From the IMG/VR virus record IMGVR_UViG_3300029400_000005: a stretch of DNA of 43,044 bases; one strand, given 5' to 3'. Below the pieces are notes generated by a model, which was not told the origin of the DNA, ran no database searches, and saw only the letters and a program-made list of their open reading frames with translations. Of the stretch, positions 33,271 through 43,044 are shown piece by piece; within the stretch, counting starts at the first letter, position 1; every line of letters begins with the position of its first letter. The DNA comes from a virus. Made by a program: the position numbers and the translations under genes.

Positions 33271-33533
33271 GCGGTTTCATCCTCCTTGCCCACTTCCGGG
33301 AAGAAAAGCTCCCCGATCTCGTCCTGCCGGATGTCCAACAGTTCACAAATTGCTGCGATCTCTTTACTTGTCCACGGCTGGTGCCCGTTCATCCGGGCGC
33401 TCATAGTGTACCGGCCAATGCCGCTATGTTCAGCGACTTCCTGATCGCGGTAGCCGCAGCTGTGGAACCGGCCCCGCAGCTTCCAGTATGGGATCTGCTT
33501 GAAAGTGCCGCGAATAGTTGATGTGTTCAACAT
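33267..33533 (-). CDS. DUF739-like HTH protein
   Basis: ATG at 33533 with GGAGG 6 nt upstream. Carries ...DQEVAEHSGIGRYTMSARMNGHQPWTSKEIAAICELLDI. Confidence 0.55.
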   Translation of the reverse strand: MLNTSTIRGTFKQIPYWKLRGRFHSCGYRDQEVAEHSGIGRYTMSARMNGHQPWTSKEIAAICELLDIRQDEIGELFFPEVGKEDETA

Positions 33534-33534
33534 T

Positions 33535-34212
33535 TTATTCCTCCTTCTTTTTGGCGGGCAGCCCATCCAGCAGGCTGTCCATCAGGGCAGCGTAGAACGG
33601 GTAGCCTTTGGCGACGATGGTCAGGCTGTCAATGGCGCTGGTGAGGTAGCTCTGGGAGCCGCGCACCACGTTCTCCATGGTGCGCACCGTGTCGCAATGC
33701 TGGCCGTAAATGGCCTTGAACTCACCGCACAGGGCCTTGACCTGCATATACTTGGCCTTGCTGTCCTCGCGGTTCTTGCGGCACTCATCCAGAAAAGCGG
33801 TGTTCTCGTCCAGTTTCTTCCGGGCTTCGATCACCCGGTCGATGGCGCTCTGGATGTTGGCGTCCTGCACGGCCTGCTGCTCTTTGTGCTGCGCGGCCAG
33901 CTGCTTCTCCATCTGGTTGAAGGCCTCGATGTACTTGAGCTTCCACTGCACGGCTTCCTTGCCCGTGAAGCCCATGGCCAGCAGGGAAAAGCCGTCACGG
34001 TTCATCAGGTACATGGGGTACTTCTGGTGGTTCTGCGGGTGGGTGTACTCAGACTTGAAGAACATGGGGGTCTGTCCATTTTTGGACACCCCTTCTTCGA
34101 GAGCTTTGATGTCTCTCAAAACATGGTTGTGTTCCTTGCCAAAGCGCTTGGCAACGTCCCGGCTGGATGCCACCGGTTCGCCGTTCTGGGTGGATAAGAT
34201 GATGTCGTTCAT
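33535..34212 (-). CDS. Rha-family phage regulatory protein (antirepressor-like)
   Basis: ATG at 34212, MNDIILSTQNGEPVASSRDVAKRFGKEHNHVLRDIKAL...MNRDGFSLLAMGFTGKEAVQWKLKYIEAFNQME. Confidence 0.85.
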   Translation of the reverse strand: MNDIILSTQNGEPVASSRDVAKRFGKEHNHVLRDIKALEEGVSKNGQTPMFFKSEYTHPQNHQKYPMYLMNRDGFSLLAMGFTGKEAVQWKLKYIEAFNQMEKQLAAQHKEQQAVQDANIQSAIDRVIEARKKLDENTAFLDECRKNREDSKAKYMQVKALCGEFKAIYGQHCDTVRTMENVVRGSQSYLTSAIDSLTIVAKGYPFYAALMDSLLDGLPAKKKEE

Positions 34213-34229
34213 GGTGAATATGTACCTCC

Positions 34230-34258
34230 TTGTGGGTGGCTCCCTTCTGCGGTAGAAT
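34230..34258 (+). promoter_or_regulatory. Candidate promoter of moron A (TTGTGG-17-TAGAAT)
   Basis: The -35 is at 34230..34235 and the -10 at 34253..34258. The 9-bp inverted repeat CCCTTCTGC/GCAGAAGGG (34242..34250 and 34262..34270) brackets the -10. Confidence 0.4.
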
Positions 34259-34280
34259 AGGGCAGAAGGGAGGTGATAAA

Positions 34281-35255
34281 ATGCAAAATTTTTACGAGTT
34301 GAGCTCTGCAGCTCAGACGGCAGCATACCAGCTGTCAGAACTCAGCAATTATGTGTCCGAAGCAGCGAAAATGGCGGATTCTGTTCGCATGGTGAGCAAC
34401 CAGATGAAATCGATTTACCAAACCGCAGAATGGAACAACATGGCGTACCGCTTAGCGAAAGATGCCAGATTATGTGTGCCAGAGTATCAACTATCCAATC
34501 TCGCCAAGAATCTGGCTGGTCAGGCCAGAGCAGATCTCAATTTCACCAATCAGATTTCGGCGCTCTACGGATCGGCAATGGAAAGTCCCGCTTTCCGGTT
34601 ATCGACAGAAATGCTGAATTCCAATGTGCTAAATCTCACCACCGCACTCCGAACAAGCAACATTACAAATCTTTACTCAAATGCTGCGGCTTTTGCGGAT
34701 CAGTTAGACTCGATATGGAGCGAAAGTACTTACAGCGAAAAAGAATCCGAAACCGTGCCGCTGGCAAGTACTCAAGCTGTTCTGGATGAAGTCGAACCAC
34801 TTCTACCTACAGAGGCGGTTGAAACTATCAACGCCAAAATCGCCGAAGTAAAAACTCCGGATAATGCAATCCCCCAAAAAGACTGGGTTGGAATTATCAG
34901 CATCATCGTTACAATTCTTCTGTTTTTGGCAGGTCAGGCATTGTCCAGCGAACATGACAAAAAGGAAGAATCTTCATGGTCTGCAACGGCAGAATATCAA
35001 CAGGAAATGCTCGAAATACAGCGAGAGGAAGCAGAAAGGTCAGAAAACTTCAGACAGCGCACGGAGGAGCATTTCAAAATCGTTGAGGATACGAATGAGC
35101 GAATCGCCGAGGCTTTGGAGATGCTCGCCAACCAGAGCGTTGAATTGGATGATCGAGGTCAAAGTGTCCTCGATTCGGATGATTCTCAAGATGATGCAGA
35201 GGATCAAGATTCCATACAGGCCGCTCAGCAGGAACAAGCCGATGCTGAGGATTGA
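34281..35255 (+). CDS. Moron A: single-pass membrane protein with an acidic coiled-coil C-terminus (324 aa)
   Basis: ATG at 34281 with GGGAGGTG upstream. The TM helix is WVGIISIIVTILLFLAGQAL. No family was recognised. Confidence 0.75.
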   Translation: MQNFYELSSAAQTAAYQLSELSNYVSEAAKMADSVRMVSNQMKSIYQTAEWNNMAYRLAKDARLCVPEYQLSNLAKNLAGQARADLNFTNQISALYGSAMESPAFRLSTEMLNSNVLNLTTALRTSNITNLYSNAAAFADQLDSIWSESTYSEKESETVPLASTQAVLDEVEPLLPTEAVETINAKIAEVKTPDNAIPQKDWVGIISIIVTILLFLAGQALSSEHDKKEESSWSATAEYQQEMLEIQREEAERSENFRQRTEEHFKIVEDTNERIAEALEMLANQSVELDDRGQSVLDSDDSQDDAEDQDSIQAAQQEQADAED

Positions 35256-38735: not shown

Positions 38736-38819
38736 AAAAACAAAAAACGCCCCCGGTGCTACCAACACCGAGAGCGTTTGCAGAGTGGCTTGCCCCAGAG
38801 GGTACAATCCAACATGAAC
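38736..38819 (-). ncRNA. Predicted small RNA (~85 nt) between the NYN gene and int
   Basis: It is bounded by a strong promoter and a strand-specific terminator. The terminator is a 13-bp stem at 38746..38778, fully paired only in the minus-strand RNA via two G-U pairs, followed by U6GU5. Confidence 0.5.
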
Positions 38820-38825
38820 ACTTGT

Positions 38826-38854
38826 ATTGTACCACCTCCGGGCAGGCTTGTCAA
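38826..38854 (-). promoter_or_regulatory. Strong minus-strand promoter TTGACA-17-(TGg)TACAAT
   Basis: The -35 is at 38849..38854 and the -10 at 38826..38831, with an extended -10 TG. Confidence 0.65.
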
Positions 38855-38884
38855 AGTGTACCCTTGTGTATGGAGGTGGATTTT

Positions 38885-40021
38885 ATGAAAAAGAGAACCA
38901 ACACGGCATTTTGGGTCGAGAAGGAAAGCCGCTGGTGCATCGCGGTGCAGAAGAACGGTACCCGCAAGCGCTTTTACAGCAGCACGCCGGGCCGCACCGG
39001 CCAGCGGGAAGCAAACGCAAAAGCGGATGCATGGCTCGACGACAGCATCCGGGACGGCAAGAAGAAGGTAGCTGCCCTCTATGCCCAGTGGGTAGAAGAA
39101 CTGAAGCTCACCTGCGGCACATCCTATGTTGAGCAGTGCAAGAAATACGGAGATTACTATATTCTGCCTGTCTGTGGGGACATCCGCATTGACGAGCTGA
39201 CCGAAGGCGATCTGCAAAAAGCCATCAATCTGTCTTTCAAAAAGCGATGCCTTAAAAAGGAGCGTCAGCGTAGGTCAAGCGACAAGCCTTTGAGCCGCAA
39301 GACCCTTATGACGATCCGCTCAACGGAGATCAGCTTTTTGAAATGGTGCCGCCGGAACAGGTACAGTACGATGTTCCCTGAGCTGTCTATCCCGAAGAAT
39401 GCCCGCATGGGGAAGAAAAAGATTTTACAGCCGACCGCTTTGAAAGTCCTGTTTGATGTGGACACCCGCCTTTACTATGGCAAGCTGGTCTTTGACGAGT
39501 ATATCTATGCCTACCGGTTTGCAGTTGCTACAGGTGTACGCCCCGGTGAACTTGTGGGGCTCTGGTATGGTGACGTCAAAGGGAACACCGTCAATCTGCG
39601 CCGCAGCATCAACCGGATGGATGAAGAAACCACCGGAAAGAATGAAAACGCTATTCGTTCATTTGACATGGGCGAGGAAGCCCATGAGGCCTACGAAGCG
39701 CAGGTAGCCTTGCTGAAGGCTTCCGATATCCCGCTGAACTATACCACCCCTTTGTTCCAGATCCCGAACCAGAGAGCTTTATTCAAGCGCTGGAAGAAGT
39801 ACCAGCGTGACAATGGCATTGAGCCTCAGGTCACGCTGTATGAGATGCGGCACACTTTCGTCAGCATTGAATCCGGCGTATTGACCGACAGCCAGCTGAA
39901 GATGCTGGTCGGTCACAGCAAGAACATGGATACTGCCGGAGTGTATCGGCACGAGCTTGATGGTCAGAGGGAAGATCTTGCTGCCGCTACCACCGCGGCA
40001 TTCAAAAAGGCACAGGCCTGA
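38885..40021 (+). CDS. int: Tyrosine recombinase / phage integrase
   Basis: ATG at 38885 with GGAGGTG upstream. Carries ...ATGVRPGELVGL...MRHTFVSI...LVGHSKNMDTAGVYRH. Confidence 0.9.
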   Translation: MKKRTNTAFWVEKESRWCIAVQKNGTRKRFYSSTPGRTGQREANAKADAWLDDSIRDGKKKVAALYAQWVEELKLTCGTSYVEQCKKYGDYYILPVCGDIRIDELTEGDLQKAINLSFKKRCLKKERQRRSSDKPLSRKTLMTIRSTEISFLKWCRRNRYSTMFPELSIPKNARMGKKKILQPTALKVLFDVDTRLYYGKLVFDEYIYAYRFAVATGVRPGELVGLWYGDVKGNTVNLRRSINRMDEETTGKNENAIRSFDMGEEAHEAYEAQVALLKASDIPLNYTTPLFQIPNQRALFKRWKKYQRDNGIEPQVTLYEMRHTFVSIESGVLTDSQLKMLVGHSKNMDTAGVYRHELDGQREDLAAATTAAFKKAQA

Positions 40022-40024
40022 ATC

Positions 40025-40045
40025 TGGTAACAGTTTTGGTAACAC
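40025..40045 (+). repeat. attP arm-type repeat TGGTAACAGTTTTGGTAACAC
   Basis: 19/21 identical to 40234..40254. It contains two TGGTAAC units 13 bp apart. Confidence 0.7.
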
Positions 40046-40160
40046 TCTTTTTTGTAAATGTAGCAAAATACATGGGCTACAAACCAACCGCACTACCTTT
40101 TTAGCAAGTGTTTAGGCGCGTTGCAGATACGTTTTTGACGTCGCTCAATCATTTTTTGTT

Positions 40161-40181
40161 GTTCGACCCCCACTACCCGCA
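40161..40181 (+). other. attP core candidate: tRNA 3'-end mimic (T-loop, T-stem 3' strand, acceptor 3' strand, discriminator)
   Basis: G-TTCGACC-CCCAC-TACCCGC-A. The sequence upstream lacks the complementary GTGGG, so this is a fragment and not a gene. Confidence 0.55.
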
Positions 40182-40193
40182 TACAAAGAAAAG

Positions 40194-40226
40194 CGCGTTG
40201 GTTCGTACAGAACCAGCGTGTTTTTT
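40194..40226 (+). terminator. Intrinsic terminator following the tRNA-like core
   Basis: 11-bp stem (CGCGTTGGTTC/GAACCAGCGTG, with G-U pairs), a 5-nt loop and T6. Confidence 0.6.
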
Positions 40227-40233
40227 CTTATCG

Positions 40234-40254
40234 TGGTAACACTTTTGGTAACGC
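40234..40254 (+). repeat. attP arm-type repeat TGGTAACACTTTTGGTAACGC
   Basis: Direct repeat of 40025..40045. Confidence 0.7.
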
Positions 40255-40264
40255 TATTAAGTTT

Positions 40265-40606
40265 TCAGACTGCTCTCACCAGCGCATTATACAACATTTC
40301 AATGAACTGCACCGCGCTTGGGCATCCGGTCAGCGGATAGCCTGCCAGCTGCTGCACATACTCCGGGTTTGTGAGCCATGCACCTTTAGCTGCCCGGCGT
40401 ACAGCGCTTTGAATCGCTTTTGGCTCACATCTTCTGCGGTCGGCGATAGGGGTATAGATATCTTTCTCCACGGCCTGCAGGCGGTCTTCCTGCTCACAGA
40501 CCAGCTCAAGACACTGGCACAGGATACTGTAGGCGCTCAGATTGCGTGTGATGCCCATCGGGCGCAGCAAATCATTGACCTGAGTGGACAATTCGGAAAC
40601 GATCAT
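40265..40606 (-). CDS. Spo0A C-terminal (DNA-binding) domain-like protein
   Basis: 113 aa from the ATG at 40606. MGITRNLSAYSILCQCLELV...IYTPIADRR...AIQSAVRRAAKGAW...LAGY...PSAVQFIEML aligns by eye with the B. subtilis Spo0A effector domain. Confidence 0.7.
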   Translation of the reverse strand: MIVSELSTQVNDLLRPMGITRNLSAYSILCQCLELVCEQEDRLQAVEKDIYTPIADRRRCEPKAIQSAVRRAAKGAWLTNPEYVQQLAGYPLTGCPSAVQFIEMLYNALVRAV

Positions 40607-40666
40607 AGTTGACACATCCTTTCTATGCGTCAACTCTAACCGAAAAATACTTAAAATTTACCAATT

Positions 40667-40693
40667 ACGTCGATATACGTCGTAAAGCGTCGA
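40667..40693. promoter_or_regulatory. Three CGTCG repeats phased at exactly 10 bp (0A-box-like)
   Basis: ACGTCGA at 40667, ACGTCGT at 40677 and GCGTCGAAA at 40687. The last contains GTCGAAA of the 0A-box TGTCGAA. Confidence 0.5.
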
Positions 40694-40701
40694 AACACGC
40701 C

Positions 40702-40744
40702 AAACAAAAACAGCCCCGAGGAACCGTCAGGCTCCCCGGGGCTG
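40702..40744 (-). terminator. Intrinsic terminator of the lysis operon
   Basis: CAGCCCCG...CGGGGCTG hairpin followed on the minus strand by TTTTTGTTT. Confidence 0.65.
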
Positions 40745-40776
40745 CTGCTATGTATGGCTATTTTGGGCAGGGCGGC

Positions 40777-41043
40777 TTACTTCCCCTGTGCCTTCAGCTT
40801 GTCGTAGGTCTGGTCTGCCTGAAGGGCTGCAGGGGTGAAGCTGTTGTTCTTCCACCACGCGACCAGCGCGGCCACGGTGGTGATACCGGCGGTGACCAGC
40901 TGCTCCACGGTCTGGCTCTCGATGGGCAGCACGGGCTTGCCCAGTGCAGACAGCACCTGATTGGTCAGGGCCAGCAGCAGGCAGGCGGTGCGGGCAATGG
41001 TACCTGCGGAGATGGTGGGTGCGTTGTAGGTGTGTGCGTTCAT
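40777..41043 (-). CDS. Holin (phi LC3 / LL-H-like)
   Basis: 88 aa with two hydrophobic segments and ...ALVAWWKNNSFTPAA, the last gene of the lysis cassette. Confidence 0.7.
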   Translation of the reverse strand: MNAHTYNAPTISAGTIARTACLLLALTNQVLSALGKPVLPIESQTVEQLVTAGITTVAALVAWWKNNSFTPAALQADQTYDKLKAQGK

Positions 41044-41045
41044 AG

Positions 41046-41288
41046 TCAGTTCCTTTCTCTTTCGTGTTCGTCTGCTTCTAAATCAGCGATGCGGTGGTTG
41101 GCCACCTTCATCTGCTCTTCCAAAATGGGGACGCGGCGGGCAAAATTGTTGTGTTCCCGCACCTCGCGGGTCAGCTCTTCCAGCTTGGTGTCGGTCACGG
41201 CCTGACTGCGGCTGTTGGCGATCAGCACGCCGATCAGGGTCACCGCACCGGCAAGGATGGCTGAGATGATGCTTTCCACTGGTCTCAC
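41046..41288 (-). CDS. XhlA-like membrane/coiled-coil lysis-associated protein
   Basis: 80 aa with an N-terminal TM segment and ...HNNFARRVPILEEQMKVANHRIADLE. The start may instead be the second GTG at 41279. Confidence 0.5.
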   Translation of the reverse strand: MRPVESIISAILAGAVTLIGVLIANSRSQAVTDTKLEELTREVREHNNFARRVPILEEQMKVANHRIADLEADEHERERN

Positions 41289-41292
41289 CCCC

Positions 41293-41706
41293 TCACAGTG
41301 TCCACCGGCTCTTGTTCGGGCGGGTGTCTACGTGCACCCAGCCCTTTGCCCGGCCTGCCTTGACCGGGTAGCGGCCCACGCCGCCCCAGCCGGGCATCAG
41401 GCTTTCGGCGTAGGCGGCCACAGCCAGCGGGTCGGTGTCCTGCACCTGAATGTCAGCGGCCCGGCCCAGCAGGTGCTGGCTGGATTTAGAGCCGCCCACC
41501 TTTGTGTTGTGGCTGGCCGTGCGGTAGCCGCTGGTGATGGTCACCGGCTTGCCGAAGTGCTCCCGGATGCACTGCAGCAGCACCACAAGGCCCTCGTCAA
41601 TGAGGATGGTGTCGGTGCCGTCGCGGCAGCGGAACTCCCGCACACGGAATGCGGGAGAGAGCTGCTTTGCACCGTCTGCTTTCAGGCTGTACTGTTTGAT
41701 TGCCAT
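41293..41706 (-). CDS. Endolysin, peptidase M15A (YcbK/DUF882-like)
   Basis: ...VTITSGYRTASHNTKVGGSKSSQHLLGRAADIQV...GWVHVDTR. Confidence 0.8.
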   Translation of the reverse strand: MAIKQYSLKADGAKQLSPAFRVREFRCRDGTDTILIDEGLVVLLQCIREHFGKPVTITSGYRTASHNTKVGGSKSSQHLLGRAADIQVQDTDPLAVAAYAESLMPGWGGVGRYPVKAGRAKGWVHVDTRPNKSRWTL

Positions 41707-41787
41707 ATGTATCACGTCCTTTCACGGGGTCAGGCCCCGATTTTCACGTTCTCTTCCAGCTCCTGATCTGCCTTGTCCTCAGCGTCC

Positions 41788-42169: not shown

Positions 42170-43044
42170 TTACTGGAATGCACCGGAAACAGAATCGATA
42201 TAGCCGCCCTCGCCGCTTGCGCCGCGCTCCACGCTGATGCGGAAATTGAACGCCGCTCCGGCAGAAGCGGTTTGATTTTCAAAGACGATGTTCATGCCCT
42301 TGCGGACTTCTGCCGTCACGTCCTGCCAGACCGGAGAATCATCCAGCGCGTTGTTGGTTGCTTCCGCCTTGAACGCGGCATCATTCGGGATGGATCCGGA
42401 CACCTGCAAGATCGCCACAGTAATGTCACCATCCACGGCCAGCGGGGTGGTCAGGGTCACACTTGCACTGGTAACGCTCTTGGTGAACGTTGCGTTCAGG
42501 CTGGTGCTCTCCTTGCCATCGTTCGCGGTGATCTTAATGGTATGGGAGCCGTTCAGGATGCGCAGGAAGCCGTCGGCGGTGCTGGCCTGTTCAAAGGTCA
42601 GCGCAGTACCGCTTGCAAGGCCGGTGCGGGTGGCAGTGGTCTTTCCGTCCAGCTTTTCGGTGACAGTCAGCGTGTCGCCGTCGGCATCGGTAACGGTATA
42701 GGCGAAGCTGAAGGGTGCGTTCTTCTCTCCCAAACTCGTGGAGCTGGCGTTGATGGCCGGGGCCACATTGTATCTGACCGTGCGTATAGCGGACGTGGTG
42801 TAGCCAGACTCCAGGCCCTCGGTGTCGTATGCCTTGACCCGATACATCACGGTGGACCAGCCGTTGGTGATGGTGTCGGTGTAGGTCAGCGCGTTGCCCT
42901 TGTACACCTGCGTGTAGGCGGAGCCACCATCGGTGCTGCGCTCCAGAATGTAGCCGCTCAGGTTGCCATCGCTGTCACTGGCCGCAGTCCACGAGATCAC
43001 CAGCGTGCTGCCGCCCTTGACATCCTTCGGCACCGCGATGGACG
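42170..43044 (-). CDS. Tail fibre / receptor-binding protein, 3' part (second FN3-like repeat plus C-terminal beta-rich domain)
   Basis: Its frame is continuous with 1..1108 through the 123-nt overlap: window position 112 equals 43033, and 1108-112 = 996, which is a multiple of 3. Sequence PKDVKGGSTLVISWTAASDSDGNLSGYILERS...MYRVKAYDTEGLESGY. Confidence 0.8.
   Translation of the reverse strand, partial: SIAVPKDVKGGSTLVISWTAASDSDGNLSGYILERSTDGGSAYTQVYKGNALTYTDTITNGWSTVMYRVKAYDTEGLESGYTTSAIRTVRYNVAPAINASSTSLGEKNAPFSFAYTVTDADGDTLTVTEKLDGKTTATRTGLASGTALTFEQASTADGFLRILNGSHTIKITANDGKESTSLNATFTKSVTSASVTLTTPLAVDGDITVAILQVSGSIPNDAAFKAEATNNALDDSPVWQDVTAEVRKGMNIVFENQTASAGAAFNFRISVERGASGEGGYIDSVSGAFQ
42922..43044. 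repeat. Terminal overlap, copy B (identical to 1..123)
   Basis: Same 123-nt string as nt 1..123 (agccaccatcggtgctgcgctccagaatgtagccgctcagg...). Confidence 0.95.

Follow-up and report, generated by a model that had tools for sequence, protein, structure and literature searches.

A receiver-less spo0A gene next to attP

We analyzed a 43,044-nt viral DNA (IMG/VR record IMGVR_UViG_3300029400_000005; 'the window' denotes this entire stretch). On its minus strand, positions 40,265–40,606 (TGA stop at 40,267–40,265) hold a gene, here termed mini-Spo0A, for a 113-aa protein related to the DNA-binding effector domain of the regulator Spo0A. Upstream of this gene lies a row of repeats, spaced at 10 bp, that resemble 0A boxes, the sites bound by Spo0A. 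The window is a temperate Faecalibacterium phage in circular form with its phage attachment site (attP), and mini-Spo0A is the last gene before attP. Its relatives are Faecalibacterium phages, including FP_Lugh, FP_Brigit and Aster, and Aster carries a mini-Spo0A homologue in the same place, beside the integrase.

The product matched the Pfam profile Spo0A_C (PF08769) along the complete profile (positions 1–104 of 104; E 1.2e-18; 67.5 bits, cut-off 25), while the full-length Spo0A model TIGR02875 aligned at positions 147–253 only and scored 38.5 bits against a cut-off of 200. An earlier sequence-only reading of this DNA had proposed an effector domain without receiver and had named PF08769 as the profile to search; the significant match and the sub-threshold TIGR02875 score bear this proposal out. 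Of the motifs it had aligned by eye, A[IV]R.A...AW, L.GY and P...FI.M are present, and GY.YL is absent. The protein lacks the N-terminal receiver domain with its phospho-acceptor Asp that marks bona fide Spo0A, a domain for which 113 aa leave no room, and the gene sits between the lysis cassette and attP instead of downstream of spoIVB. It also matched phrog_24603 (E 1e-11), a family annotated as 'unknown function'. By sequence, the sole relatives in the PDB were the Spo0A effector domains 1FC3 and 1LQ1, with an alignment spanning residues 6–106. An AlphaFold2 model built with 22 homologues (predicted local distance difference test score, 88) displayed six helices, and Foldseek placed it at template-modeling (TM) scores of 0.78–0.81 and a root-mean-square deviation of 2.3 Å to 1FC3 and 1LQ1, with all other PDB matches below 0.4. 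The model thus reproduces the PF08769 fold, six helices with a helix-turn-helix (HTH) as in these two structures. Profile and model evidence together identify the predicted product as a Spo0A homologue consisting of the six-helix, DNA-binding-type effector domain only.

Public data contained 169 homologous clusters (90% identity), almost all of 112–116 aa and with invariant HTH residues. The ratio of nonsynonymous to synonymous substitution rates (dN/dS) was 0.06–0.20 against nine relatives, with a median of 0.13 over 45 pairs. Mini-Spo0A is, therefore, a real gene under purifying selection. Its N-terminus, MIVSELS, is common to the relatives and does not support use of a longer TTG-initiated frame (to 40,633). 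Identity is 20–25% to the Bacillus and Geobacillus effector domains and 25% to the C-terminal domain of host Spo0A, the latter arguing against a recent capture.

Phased 0A-type boxes and the surrounding genes

Three strong 0A-type boxes occupy positions 40,667–40,696 of the minus strand with a 10-bp period (on the gene strand, GTTTCGACGC, TTTACGACGT and ATATCGACGT), and two degenerate units continue the phase from 40,666 to 40,647. The sequence-only reading had noted three repeats there, ACGTCGA, ACGTCGT and GCGTCGAAA, beginning at 40,667, 40,677 and 40,687, and had called them 0A-box-like and helically phased; the positions, the likeness and the phasing all held, and the arrangement proved to be conserved in relatives. 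The pattern CGTCG-N5-CGTCG-N5-CGTCG occurs once in the 43 kb, with zero mismatches, at a chance expectation of ~0.05–0.09 (0.09 when up to two mismatches are allowed), and none of 100 shuffles reached the observed count.

All 22 non-redundant upstream regions from relatives whose proteins are 60–100% identical to that of the window contained a row of three to six ten-base units in the same place and on the gene strand. Read on the opposite strand, their box consensus, ATTTCGACAC, gives the 0A box TGTCGAA. Iterative refinement of a weight matrix yielded the unit A-T-T-t-C-G-A-C-a/g-c/t, whose reverse complement likewise includes TGTCGAA. Of 80 distances between neighboring units, 56 were exactly 10 bp and 14 more were 9 or 11 bp. 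At a stricter threshold, 94 units were found with 60 of 72 spacings at 9–11 bp, compared to 4.8 units and 0.015 phased spacings in shuffles. Spo0A specifically contacts G2, C4 and G5 of TGTCGAA (PMC3485338), and it is at the counterparts of G2 and C4 that the phage boxes are best conserved (C, 0.97, and G, 0.79, respectively). The three window boxes (cGTCGAA, cGTCGTa and cGTCGAt) keep G2, C4 and G5 throughout; the consensus of the relatives holds an exact TTCGACA, as do many of their individual boxes.

A search for such arrays covered all fetched loci, 540 kb on both strands, together with the entire window. The approximately 95 arrays with at least three phased units were all on the gene strand, 60–110 nt upstream of mini-Spo0A genes, and none occurred elsewhere. 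The array accompanies the gene across integration sites in tRNA-Leu, tRNA-Ala, tRNA-Tyr and transfer-messenger RNA (tmRNA) genes; since it is retained when the integration module changes, it is not an integrase arm site.

Between the boxes and the gene, we predict a −10 element, TAGAGT (40,633–40,638, minus strand), ~26 nt before the ATG. It follows a family pattern, TAnAnT: TAGAGT, TAAAGT, TAGAAT, TAAATT or TACACT stands at the equivalent position in all representative relatives. A sigma-70 consensus scan of positions 39,900–41,100 found no promoter, and a correctly spaced −35 element is absent, the nearest −35-like hexamer being TTGGTA, 20 nt upstream of the −10. If transcription starts ~7 nt past the hexamer, the strong boxes would lie at approximately −71 to −42 and the degenerate units would run through the −35 region, a layout that would suit an activator-dependent promoter. 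A ribosome-binding site (RBS), AAAGGA, read from the sequence at 40,617–40,622 (minus strand), lies 10 nt upstream of the ATG, and A[AG]GGA is conserved in this place among the relatives. It is spanned by an inverted repeat recovered in a repeat search, GTTGACGCAT-agaaagg-ATGTGTCAAC (40,600–40,642, minus strand), which may act as a 5′-untranslated-region hairpin or as a DNA dyad. The corresponding RNA hairpin (−10 to −13.7 kcal/mol) is present in the relatives L002, L003, L004, L044 and L047, with one G-C to G-U change. We rejected it as a conserved translational control because it occurs in these five close relatives only and is absent from distant groups, and it is, thus, no family feature.

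Upstream of this unit lies the lysis cassette (40,777–41,715), assigned with Pfam and PHROGs and encoded on the minus strand. It consists of an M15 endolysin (41,293–41,715), a small phrog_1863 protein (41,046–41,288) and an SPP1-type holin (40,777–41,043). Directly after the holin gene, a terminator scan placed an intrinsic terminator (40,709–40,746, minus strand; 17-bp stem with 11 G-C pairs, followed by a T-run), and a GGGGCTG-TTTTT hairpin likewise precedes the array in most relatives. The suggestion that mini-Spo0A forms its own transcription unit between the lysis terminator (40,746–40,709) and attP agrees with these data. An upstream terminator, a predicted −10 element and box array of its own, and a location at the prophage end are marks of a moron or lysogenic-conversion gene, and mini-Spo0A carries these. 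In integrated copies it is the last gene before the tRNA, and it occurs with different integrase and attachment modules.

On the far side of attP and convergent with mini-Spo0A, a tyrosine integrase is encoded on the plus strand (38,756–40,021; Pfam Phage_integrase and Phage_int_SAM_3). Read from the sequence, an imperfect hairpin with T-runs on both strands (40,190–40,228) lies between the attP core and the stop codon of mini-Spo0A and might serve as a bidirectional terminator; it is kept in the integrated copy of genome G092 and folds no better than shuffles (z −0.65). Holin, endolysin, integrase and structural genes are all present in the window. Its two ends (1–1,108 and 42,170–43,044) join in frame into one 660-aa open reading frame (ORF) with repeated SDSDGNLSGYILERSTDGG modules, the product of which resembles a tail or head-fibre protein. 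The in-frame junction implies that the window holds the entire genome of the phage, circularly permuted and in its attP form.

Host Spo0A, attachment site and recognition helix

Faecalibacterium is described as non-spore-forming (PMC6295017). Its genomes nevertheless keep spo0A, spoIVB, spoIIGA and spoIIP; in five Faecalibacterium metagenome-assembled genomes (MAGs), small acid-soluble spore proteins (SASP) were not found. Roughly 75 of 91 species-representative genomes encode a full-length Spo0A (~157 bits), the remainder being mostly fragmentary assemblies, and the gene lies downstream of spoIVB, as in Bacillus. The host C-terminal domain matches 1LQ1 at E 1e-43, and its recognition helix, SRVERAIRHAIEVAW, is identical to that of B. 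subtilis and G. stearothermophilus. By this sequence evidence, the host possesses a protein that should be able to read canonical 0A boxes. Its receiver keeps the phospho-acceptor Asp, the Thr and the Lys, with Ser in place of the first Asp of the acidic pocket. At this pocket, the host has Ser-Asp where Bacillus and C. difficile have Asp10-Asp11 (L100, 1,468–2,277; L103, 1,069–1,842; L119, 373–1,182). The role of the acidic pocket has been described, and D10 mutants of C. difficile are severely sporulation defective (10.1101/2022.02.07.479450). Spo0A is common in non-spore-forming Clostridia (10.1101/2022.02.25.481979). In two MAGs in which the regions upstream of spo0A and spoIIGA were inspected, the host spo0A gene was preceded by TGGCGAA and TTCGACA in one and by no 0A box in the other. 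A search of five host genomes with CGRCR-N5-CGRCR-N5-CGRCR was discarded as too insensitive: it returned three matches, fewer than a reversed-pattern control, and missed the prophage arrays.

At least one mini-Spo0A gene was present in 25 of the 91 Faecalibacterium species-level genomes. A 381-bp probe covering the gap between integrase and mini-Spo0A gave matches in 26 of the 91, with a sharp boundary at 40,161. This boundary locates the attP core at 40,161–40,196 (plus strand), confirming that the gene adjoins attP. Positions 40,161–40,182 equal the 3′ end of the host tRNA-Leu(UAG) gene, GTTCGACCCCCACTACCCGCAT, and identity to an empty site, in genome G005, extends over 36 of 36 bases to 40,196. 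The bacterial attachment site (attB), with its tRNA-Leu(UAG) mapped by ARAGORN, lies ~2 kb from the region encoding the host Spo0A effector domain and just upstream of spoIVB in all five genomes in which both were located (G005, G018, G078, G090 and G092). In a sixth (G008), a mini-Spo0A match lies 2.1 kb from spo0A. The integrated junction of G092 reads spo0A <- spoIVB <- tRNA-Leu -> <- mini-Spo0A, with phage and host sequences diverging inside GTTCGACCCCCACTACCCGCAT. Integration beside spo0A is, thus, seen in G092 and has probably also occurred in G008. On both sides of the core lie direct repeats of TGGTAACAnTTTTGGTAAC (40,025–40,049 and 40,234–40,258, plus strand; 88% identity in a repeat search), candidates for arm-type sites of the integrase.

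Several further observations concern integration. The tRNA-Leu(UAG) gene is ~150 bp upstream of the spoIVB–spo0A operon in Faecalibacterium (L118, 4,446–4,543; L119, 2,647–2,800), and in a lysogen mini-Spo0A would share the strand of spoIVB–spo0A and precede spoIVB by ~300 bp. The island between the two core copies in G092 spans only ~4.4 kb and is probably a prophage remnant that kept mini-Spo0A; there, the start codon of mini-Spo0A is overlapped (ATGA) by a hydrophobic 30-aa ORF (MVTTVLITLMILALLEIVLLNGARLFFMIA) that has an RBS of its own. Relatives are integrated at tRNA-Ala, tRNA-Tyr and tmRNA genes, with unrelated downstream sequence, and an 80%-identical one resides in a tRNA-Ala directly upstream of the host spoIIGA–sigE operon (L006, 3,001–6,238). 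We rejected a general rule that Spo0A_C prophages integrate beside sporulation loci: it is true for the attB of the window and for L006 but fails elsewhere, the neighbors being a transglycosylase, smpB–ssrA and PhoH in L002, L010 and L017, respectively.

The phage recognition helix, KAIQSAVRRAAKGAW, departs from the bona fide Spo0A signature SRVERAIRHAIEVAW (AIQSAVRRAA versus SRVERAIRHAIE). Residues A64, Q66, S67, R70, R71 and A72 are invariant in the phage clade. In B. subtilis numbering, checked by counting back from the C-terminus, E213 is replaced by Q, R214 by S and H218 by R, while R217 is kept. A profile search of the whole library returned 2,201 clusters (50% identity), and most of the best 150 were stand-alone proteins of 100–130 aa. 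Among 101 aligned stand-alone representatives, the majority form was V-E-R-N-I-R-T, and the Q-S..R-R form of the window is that of a derived sub-clade. Arg was present at both 214 and 218 in one protein, at 214 only in 55, at 218 only in 27 and at neither in 21 (Fisher p 7e-11, uncorrected for phylogeny, with 17 of the 27 in the query's own clade). This distribution suggests that a DNA-contacting Arg may have moved by one helical turn in several lineages.

Readings of the cassette and known systems

For the cassette as a whole, we lean slightly toward a joint reading in which phosphorylated host Spo0A (Spo0A~P) reads the promoter, the phage protein feeds back on it and the same protein acts on the host regulon. 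The putative cassette would run from the lysis terminator through a TAnAnT promoter with phased boxes replacing the −35 element, a short leader and the coding sequence to attP. Spo0A-type HTH domains would bind the phased boxes in tandem, on one face of the DNA, and thereby control RNA polymerase. Because the box consensus is the site of the host protein and the promoter lacks a −35 element, host Spo0A~P would most likely be the reader and would probably activate the gene. The phage protein would occupy the same boxes as feedback and, being independent of phosphorylation, would bind 0A-type sites on the host chromosome and alter the Spo0A regulon. The isolated Spo0A DNA-binding domain does bind legitimate targets without phosphorylation (PMC3485338). 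The analysis shows the identity and fold of the protein, purifying selection, a conserved and exclusive box array, the terminator, attP and the host Spo0A; which protein occupies the boxes, whether it activates or represses and what it targets in the host are points that we infer. The sequence-only reading had gone further, to a lysogenic-conversion gene rewiring host sporulation. This is too specific given a host described as non-spore-forming and the five MAGs without detected SASP; the target that we propose is the Spo0A regulon of a non-spore-former.

Several observations weigh against this joint reading. The three window boxes all have C at position 1 and so fall short of an exact TGNCGAA. 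The changes at E213, R214 and H218 alter the recognition helix, so that identical DNA specificity cannot be assumed and the preferred site of the phage protein may not be the 0A box. The weight matrix was trained on the same sequences that it scored, which makes the site count circular and leaves spacing and exclusivity as the independent evidence. Similar arrays were not seen in the host loci examined or in a strict search of five host genomes. The array is also absent from the G092 copy beside spo0A (L119, 2,801–3,330; G092:C1 ~1,335,800–1,336,330).

As to the effect on the host, we favor a competitor or repressor of Spo0A-dependent promoters over an activator. Throughout the phage family, QLAGY is invariant, where B. 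subtilis Spo0A has SLFGY and the host RYFGY. The Phe of SLFGY (F236) we take, from B. subtilis genetics and suv mutants, to be part of the sigma-A-activating region, and the loss of this conserved residue is what would speak for a competitor. A sigma-A-activating region of Spo0A has been described (PMC4690370). The argument uses one residue class from B. subtilis genetics, which counts against pressing it far.

Tentatively, and with a probability that we put well below even, the joint reading could be sharpened to an anti-Spo0A that is itself induced by Spo0A~P. Its product would fill 0A boxes without recruiting sigma-A polymerase and so damp a residual Spo0A programme, and integration at tRNA-Leu upstream of spoIVB–spo0A would reinforce the effect. 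If so, the lysogen of a 'non-sporulating' commensal would stay vegetative and inducible, and tRNA-Leu integration would place the antagonist beside its target gene.

The alternative that survives best, which we nonetheless consider unlikely, is that the phage protein alone binds the array and regulates no gene but its own, with perhaps a small number of phage sites besides, sharing only its fold with Spo0A and having no cross-talk with the host. The exclusive co-occurrence of array and gene fits such an autoregulator, as do a recognition helix that is invariant in the clade yet unlike that of Spo0A, the 25% identity to the host C-terminal domain and the failure to find arrays in the host loci examined. 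The near-exclusivity of Arg214 and Arg218 across ~100 relatives, suggestive of a re-engineered DNA contact, points the same way. However, the boxes have the canonical 0A box as their consensus and are most conserved at the bases that Spo0A contacts (PMC3485338), and a host protein with the canonical helix is encoded in nearly all Faecalibacterium genomes. Moreover, a regulator of itself alone would hardly be kept at a dN/dS of ~0.13 in a quarter of the species genomes.

We regard it as improbable that the protein is instead a constitutive mimic of Spo0A~P, activating and repressing 0A promoters regardless of signals and driving its own promoter by positive feedback. Schwartz et al. gave this reading for phage spo0A truncations (PMC10294663). 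In B. subtilis, the effector domain on its own needs no phosphorylation to be active (PMC3485338), and a promoter that lacks a −35 element and has boxes lying upstream of the −35 region and reaching into it would have the geometry of an activated one. The replacement of SLFGY or RYFGY by QLAGY speaks against it, however, and a constitutive stationary-phase programme would be costly for a lysogen. That the repeats are no Spo0A-type sites at all but arm sites of an integrase or excisionase, T-phased DNA with an intrinsic bend, or chance is essentially excluded: the units are T-rich, phased like curved DNA and <500 bp from attP, but a change of integrase and attachment module leaves array and gene together, separate arm-type repeats flank the core, conservation peaks at the C and G of the CGAC core instead of the T-tract, and the pattern and shuffle statistics exclude chance.

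The gene class itself is already published. Receiver-less spo0A homologues have been reported from human-gut phages in 29 virome sequences, and truncated spo0A genes are enriched in phages of spore-formers (Schwartz et al. 2023, mBio, PMC10294663); mobile elements of gut Firmicutes show an enrichment of PF08769 (Jiang et al. 2019, PMC6907783). We found no functional study of receiver-less phage spo0A genes in the literature. The gene described here shares with those of Schwartz et al. the effector-only architecture, the location on a gut phage and the idea of phosphorylation-independent interference. Both earlier studies are gene inventories without promoter analysis, whereas here the gene has a conserved array of phased 0A-type boxes in its predicted promoter, its host belongs to a genus described as non-spore-forming, the helix is of the Q-S..R-R form and the attP tRNA lies beside the host spo0A. 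What is new is anatomy at the level of mechanism, namely the exclusivity of the array, the TAnAnT element, the Arg-swap pattern, attB beside the host spo0A and the prevalence of 25 in 91.

With the Bacillus and Geobacillus effector domains (1LQ1, a DNA complex, and 1FC3), the phage protein has in common the six-helix fold (TM ~0.8), the Arg at R217 and the A-W motif, and its boxes share G2, C4 and G5 with TGTCGAA. The tandem abrB-promoter boxes in 1LQ1 are said, from the work of Zhao et al. in 2002, to be direct repeats at 10-bp spacing, like the phage array. The phage protein differs from those Spo0A proteins in its 20–25% identity, the missing receiver, the E213Q, R214S and H218R changes and a phage location in place of the spoIVB–spo0A locus. 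The genomes of phi29 and Nf carry sites for host Spo0A (PMC2731898), and there, as predicted here, phage 0A boxes tie phage gene expression to the Spo0A state of the host. Phi29 encodes no Spo0A homologue, and its boxes serve to repress replication and the early lytic promoters, whereas the window has one array at one accessory Spo0A-type gene. Homologues of sporulation sigma factors in phages, supported by experiments in B. subtilis (Schwartz et al. 2022, mSphere, PMC9429907), are likewise phage copies of a host sporulation regulator for which perturbation of dormancy has been proposed or shown; here, in contrast, the copy is a response-regulator output domain known from sequence alone. Finally, the B. 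subtilis spo0A promoter is autoregulated through multiple 0A boxes (10.1101/2025.01.21.634141). It resembles the phage promoter in having several such boxes upstream of a Spo0A-type gene. The B. subtilis boxes are three, dispersed, and served by sigma-A and sigma-H promoters, while those of the phage promoter form an unbroken row of three to six, with a strict 10-bp period and a single −10 element.

The cassette offers testable handles on whether gut phages manipulate dormancy or stationary-phase decisions of their hosts, on the Spo0A regulon of non-spore-formers and on how a Spo0A HTH might swap DNA-contacting residues (Arg214 to Arg218) while its sites look unchanged.

Three minor observations concern other Spo0A-type sites and domains. 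The box matrix has seven isolated hits (score ≥8) at 33,400–35,200 of the window, among them the two best of the whole window, at 33,698 (minus strand) and 34,554 (plus strand); local shuffles predict 2.05 and 3 of 300 reach seven, for a region chosen post hoc. As a weak lead, Spo0A-type proteins may also touch the lysogeny switch near this region. In most genomes of Faecalibacterium, a third Spo0A_C-like match, a weak one (22–38 bits), lies within frames of ~250–260 aa (for example, G090:C1:1259025-1259300, G092:C1:1955770-1956030 and G018:C11:215862-216107), which may represent a divergent regulator with a Spo0A-type output domain. Proteins of 242–849 aa with two to five tandem Spo0A_C domains were also found (P0132, P0134, P0139, P0152, P0256, P0257, P0176 and P0177); several have canonical VERAI helices, and their architecture would fit phased 0A-box arrays.

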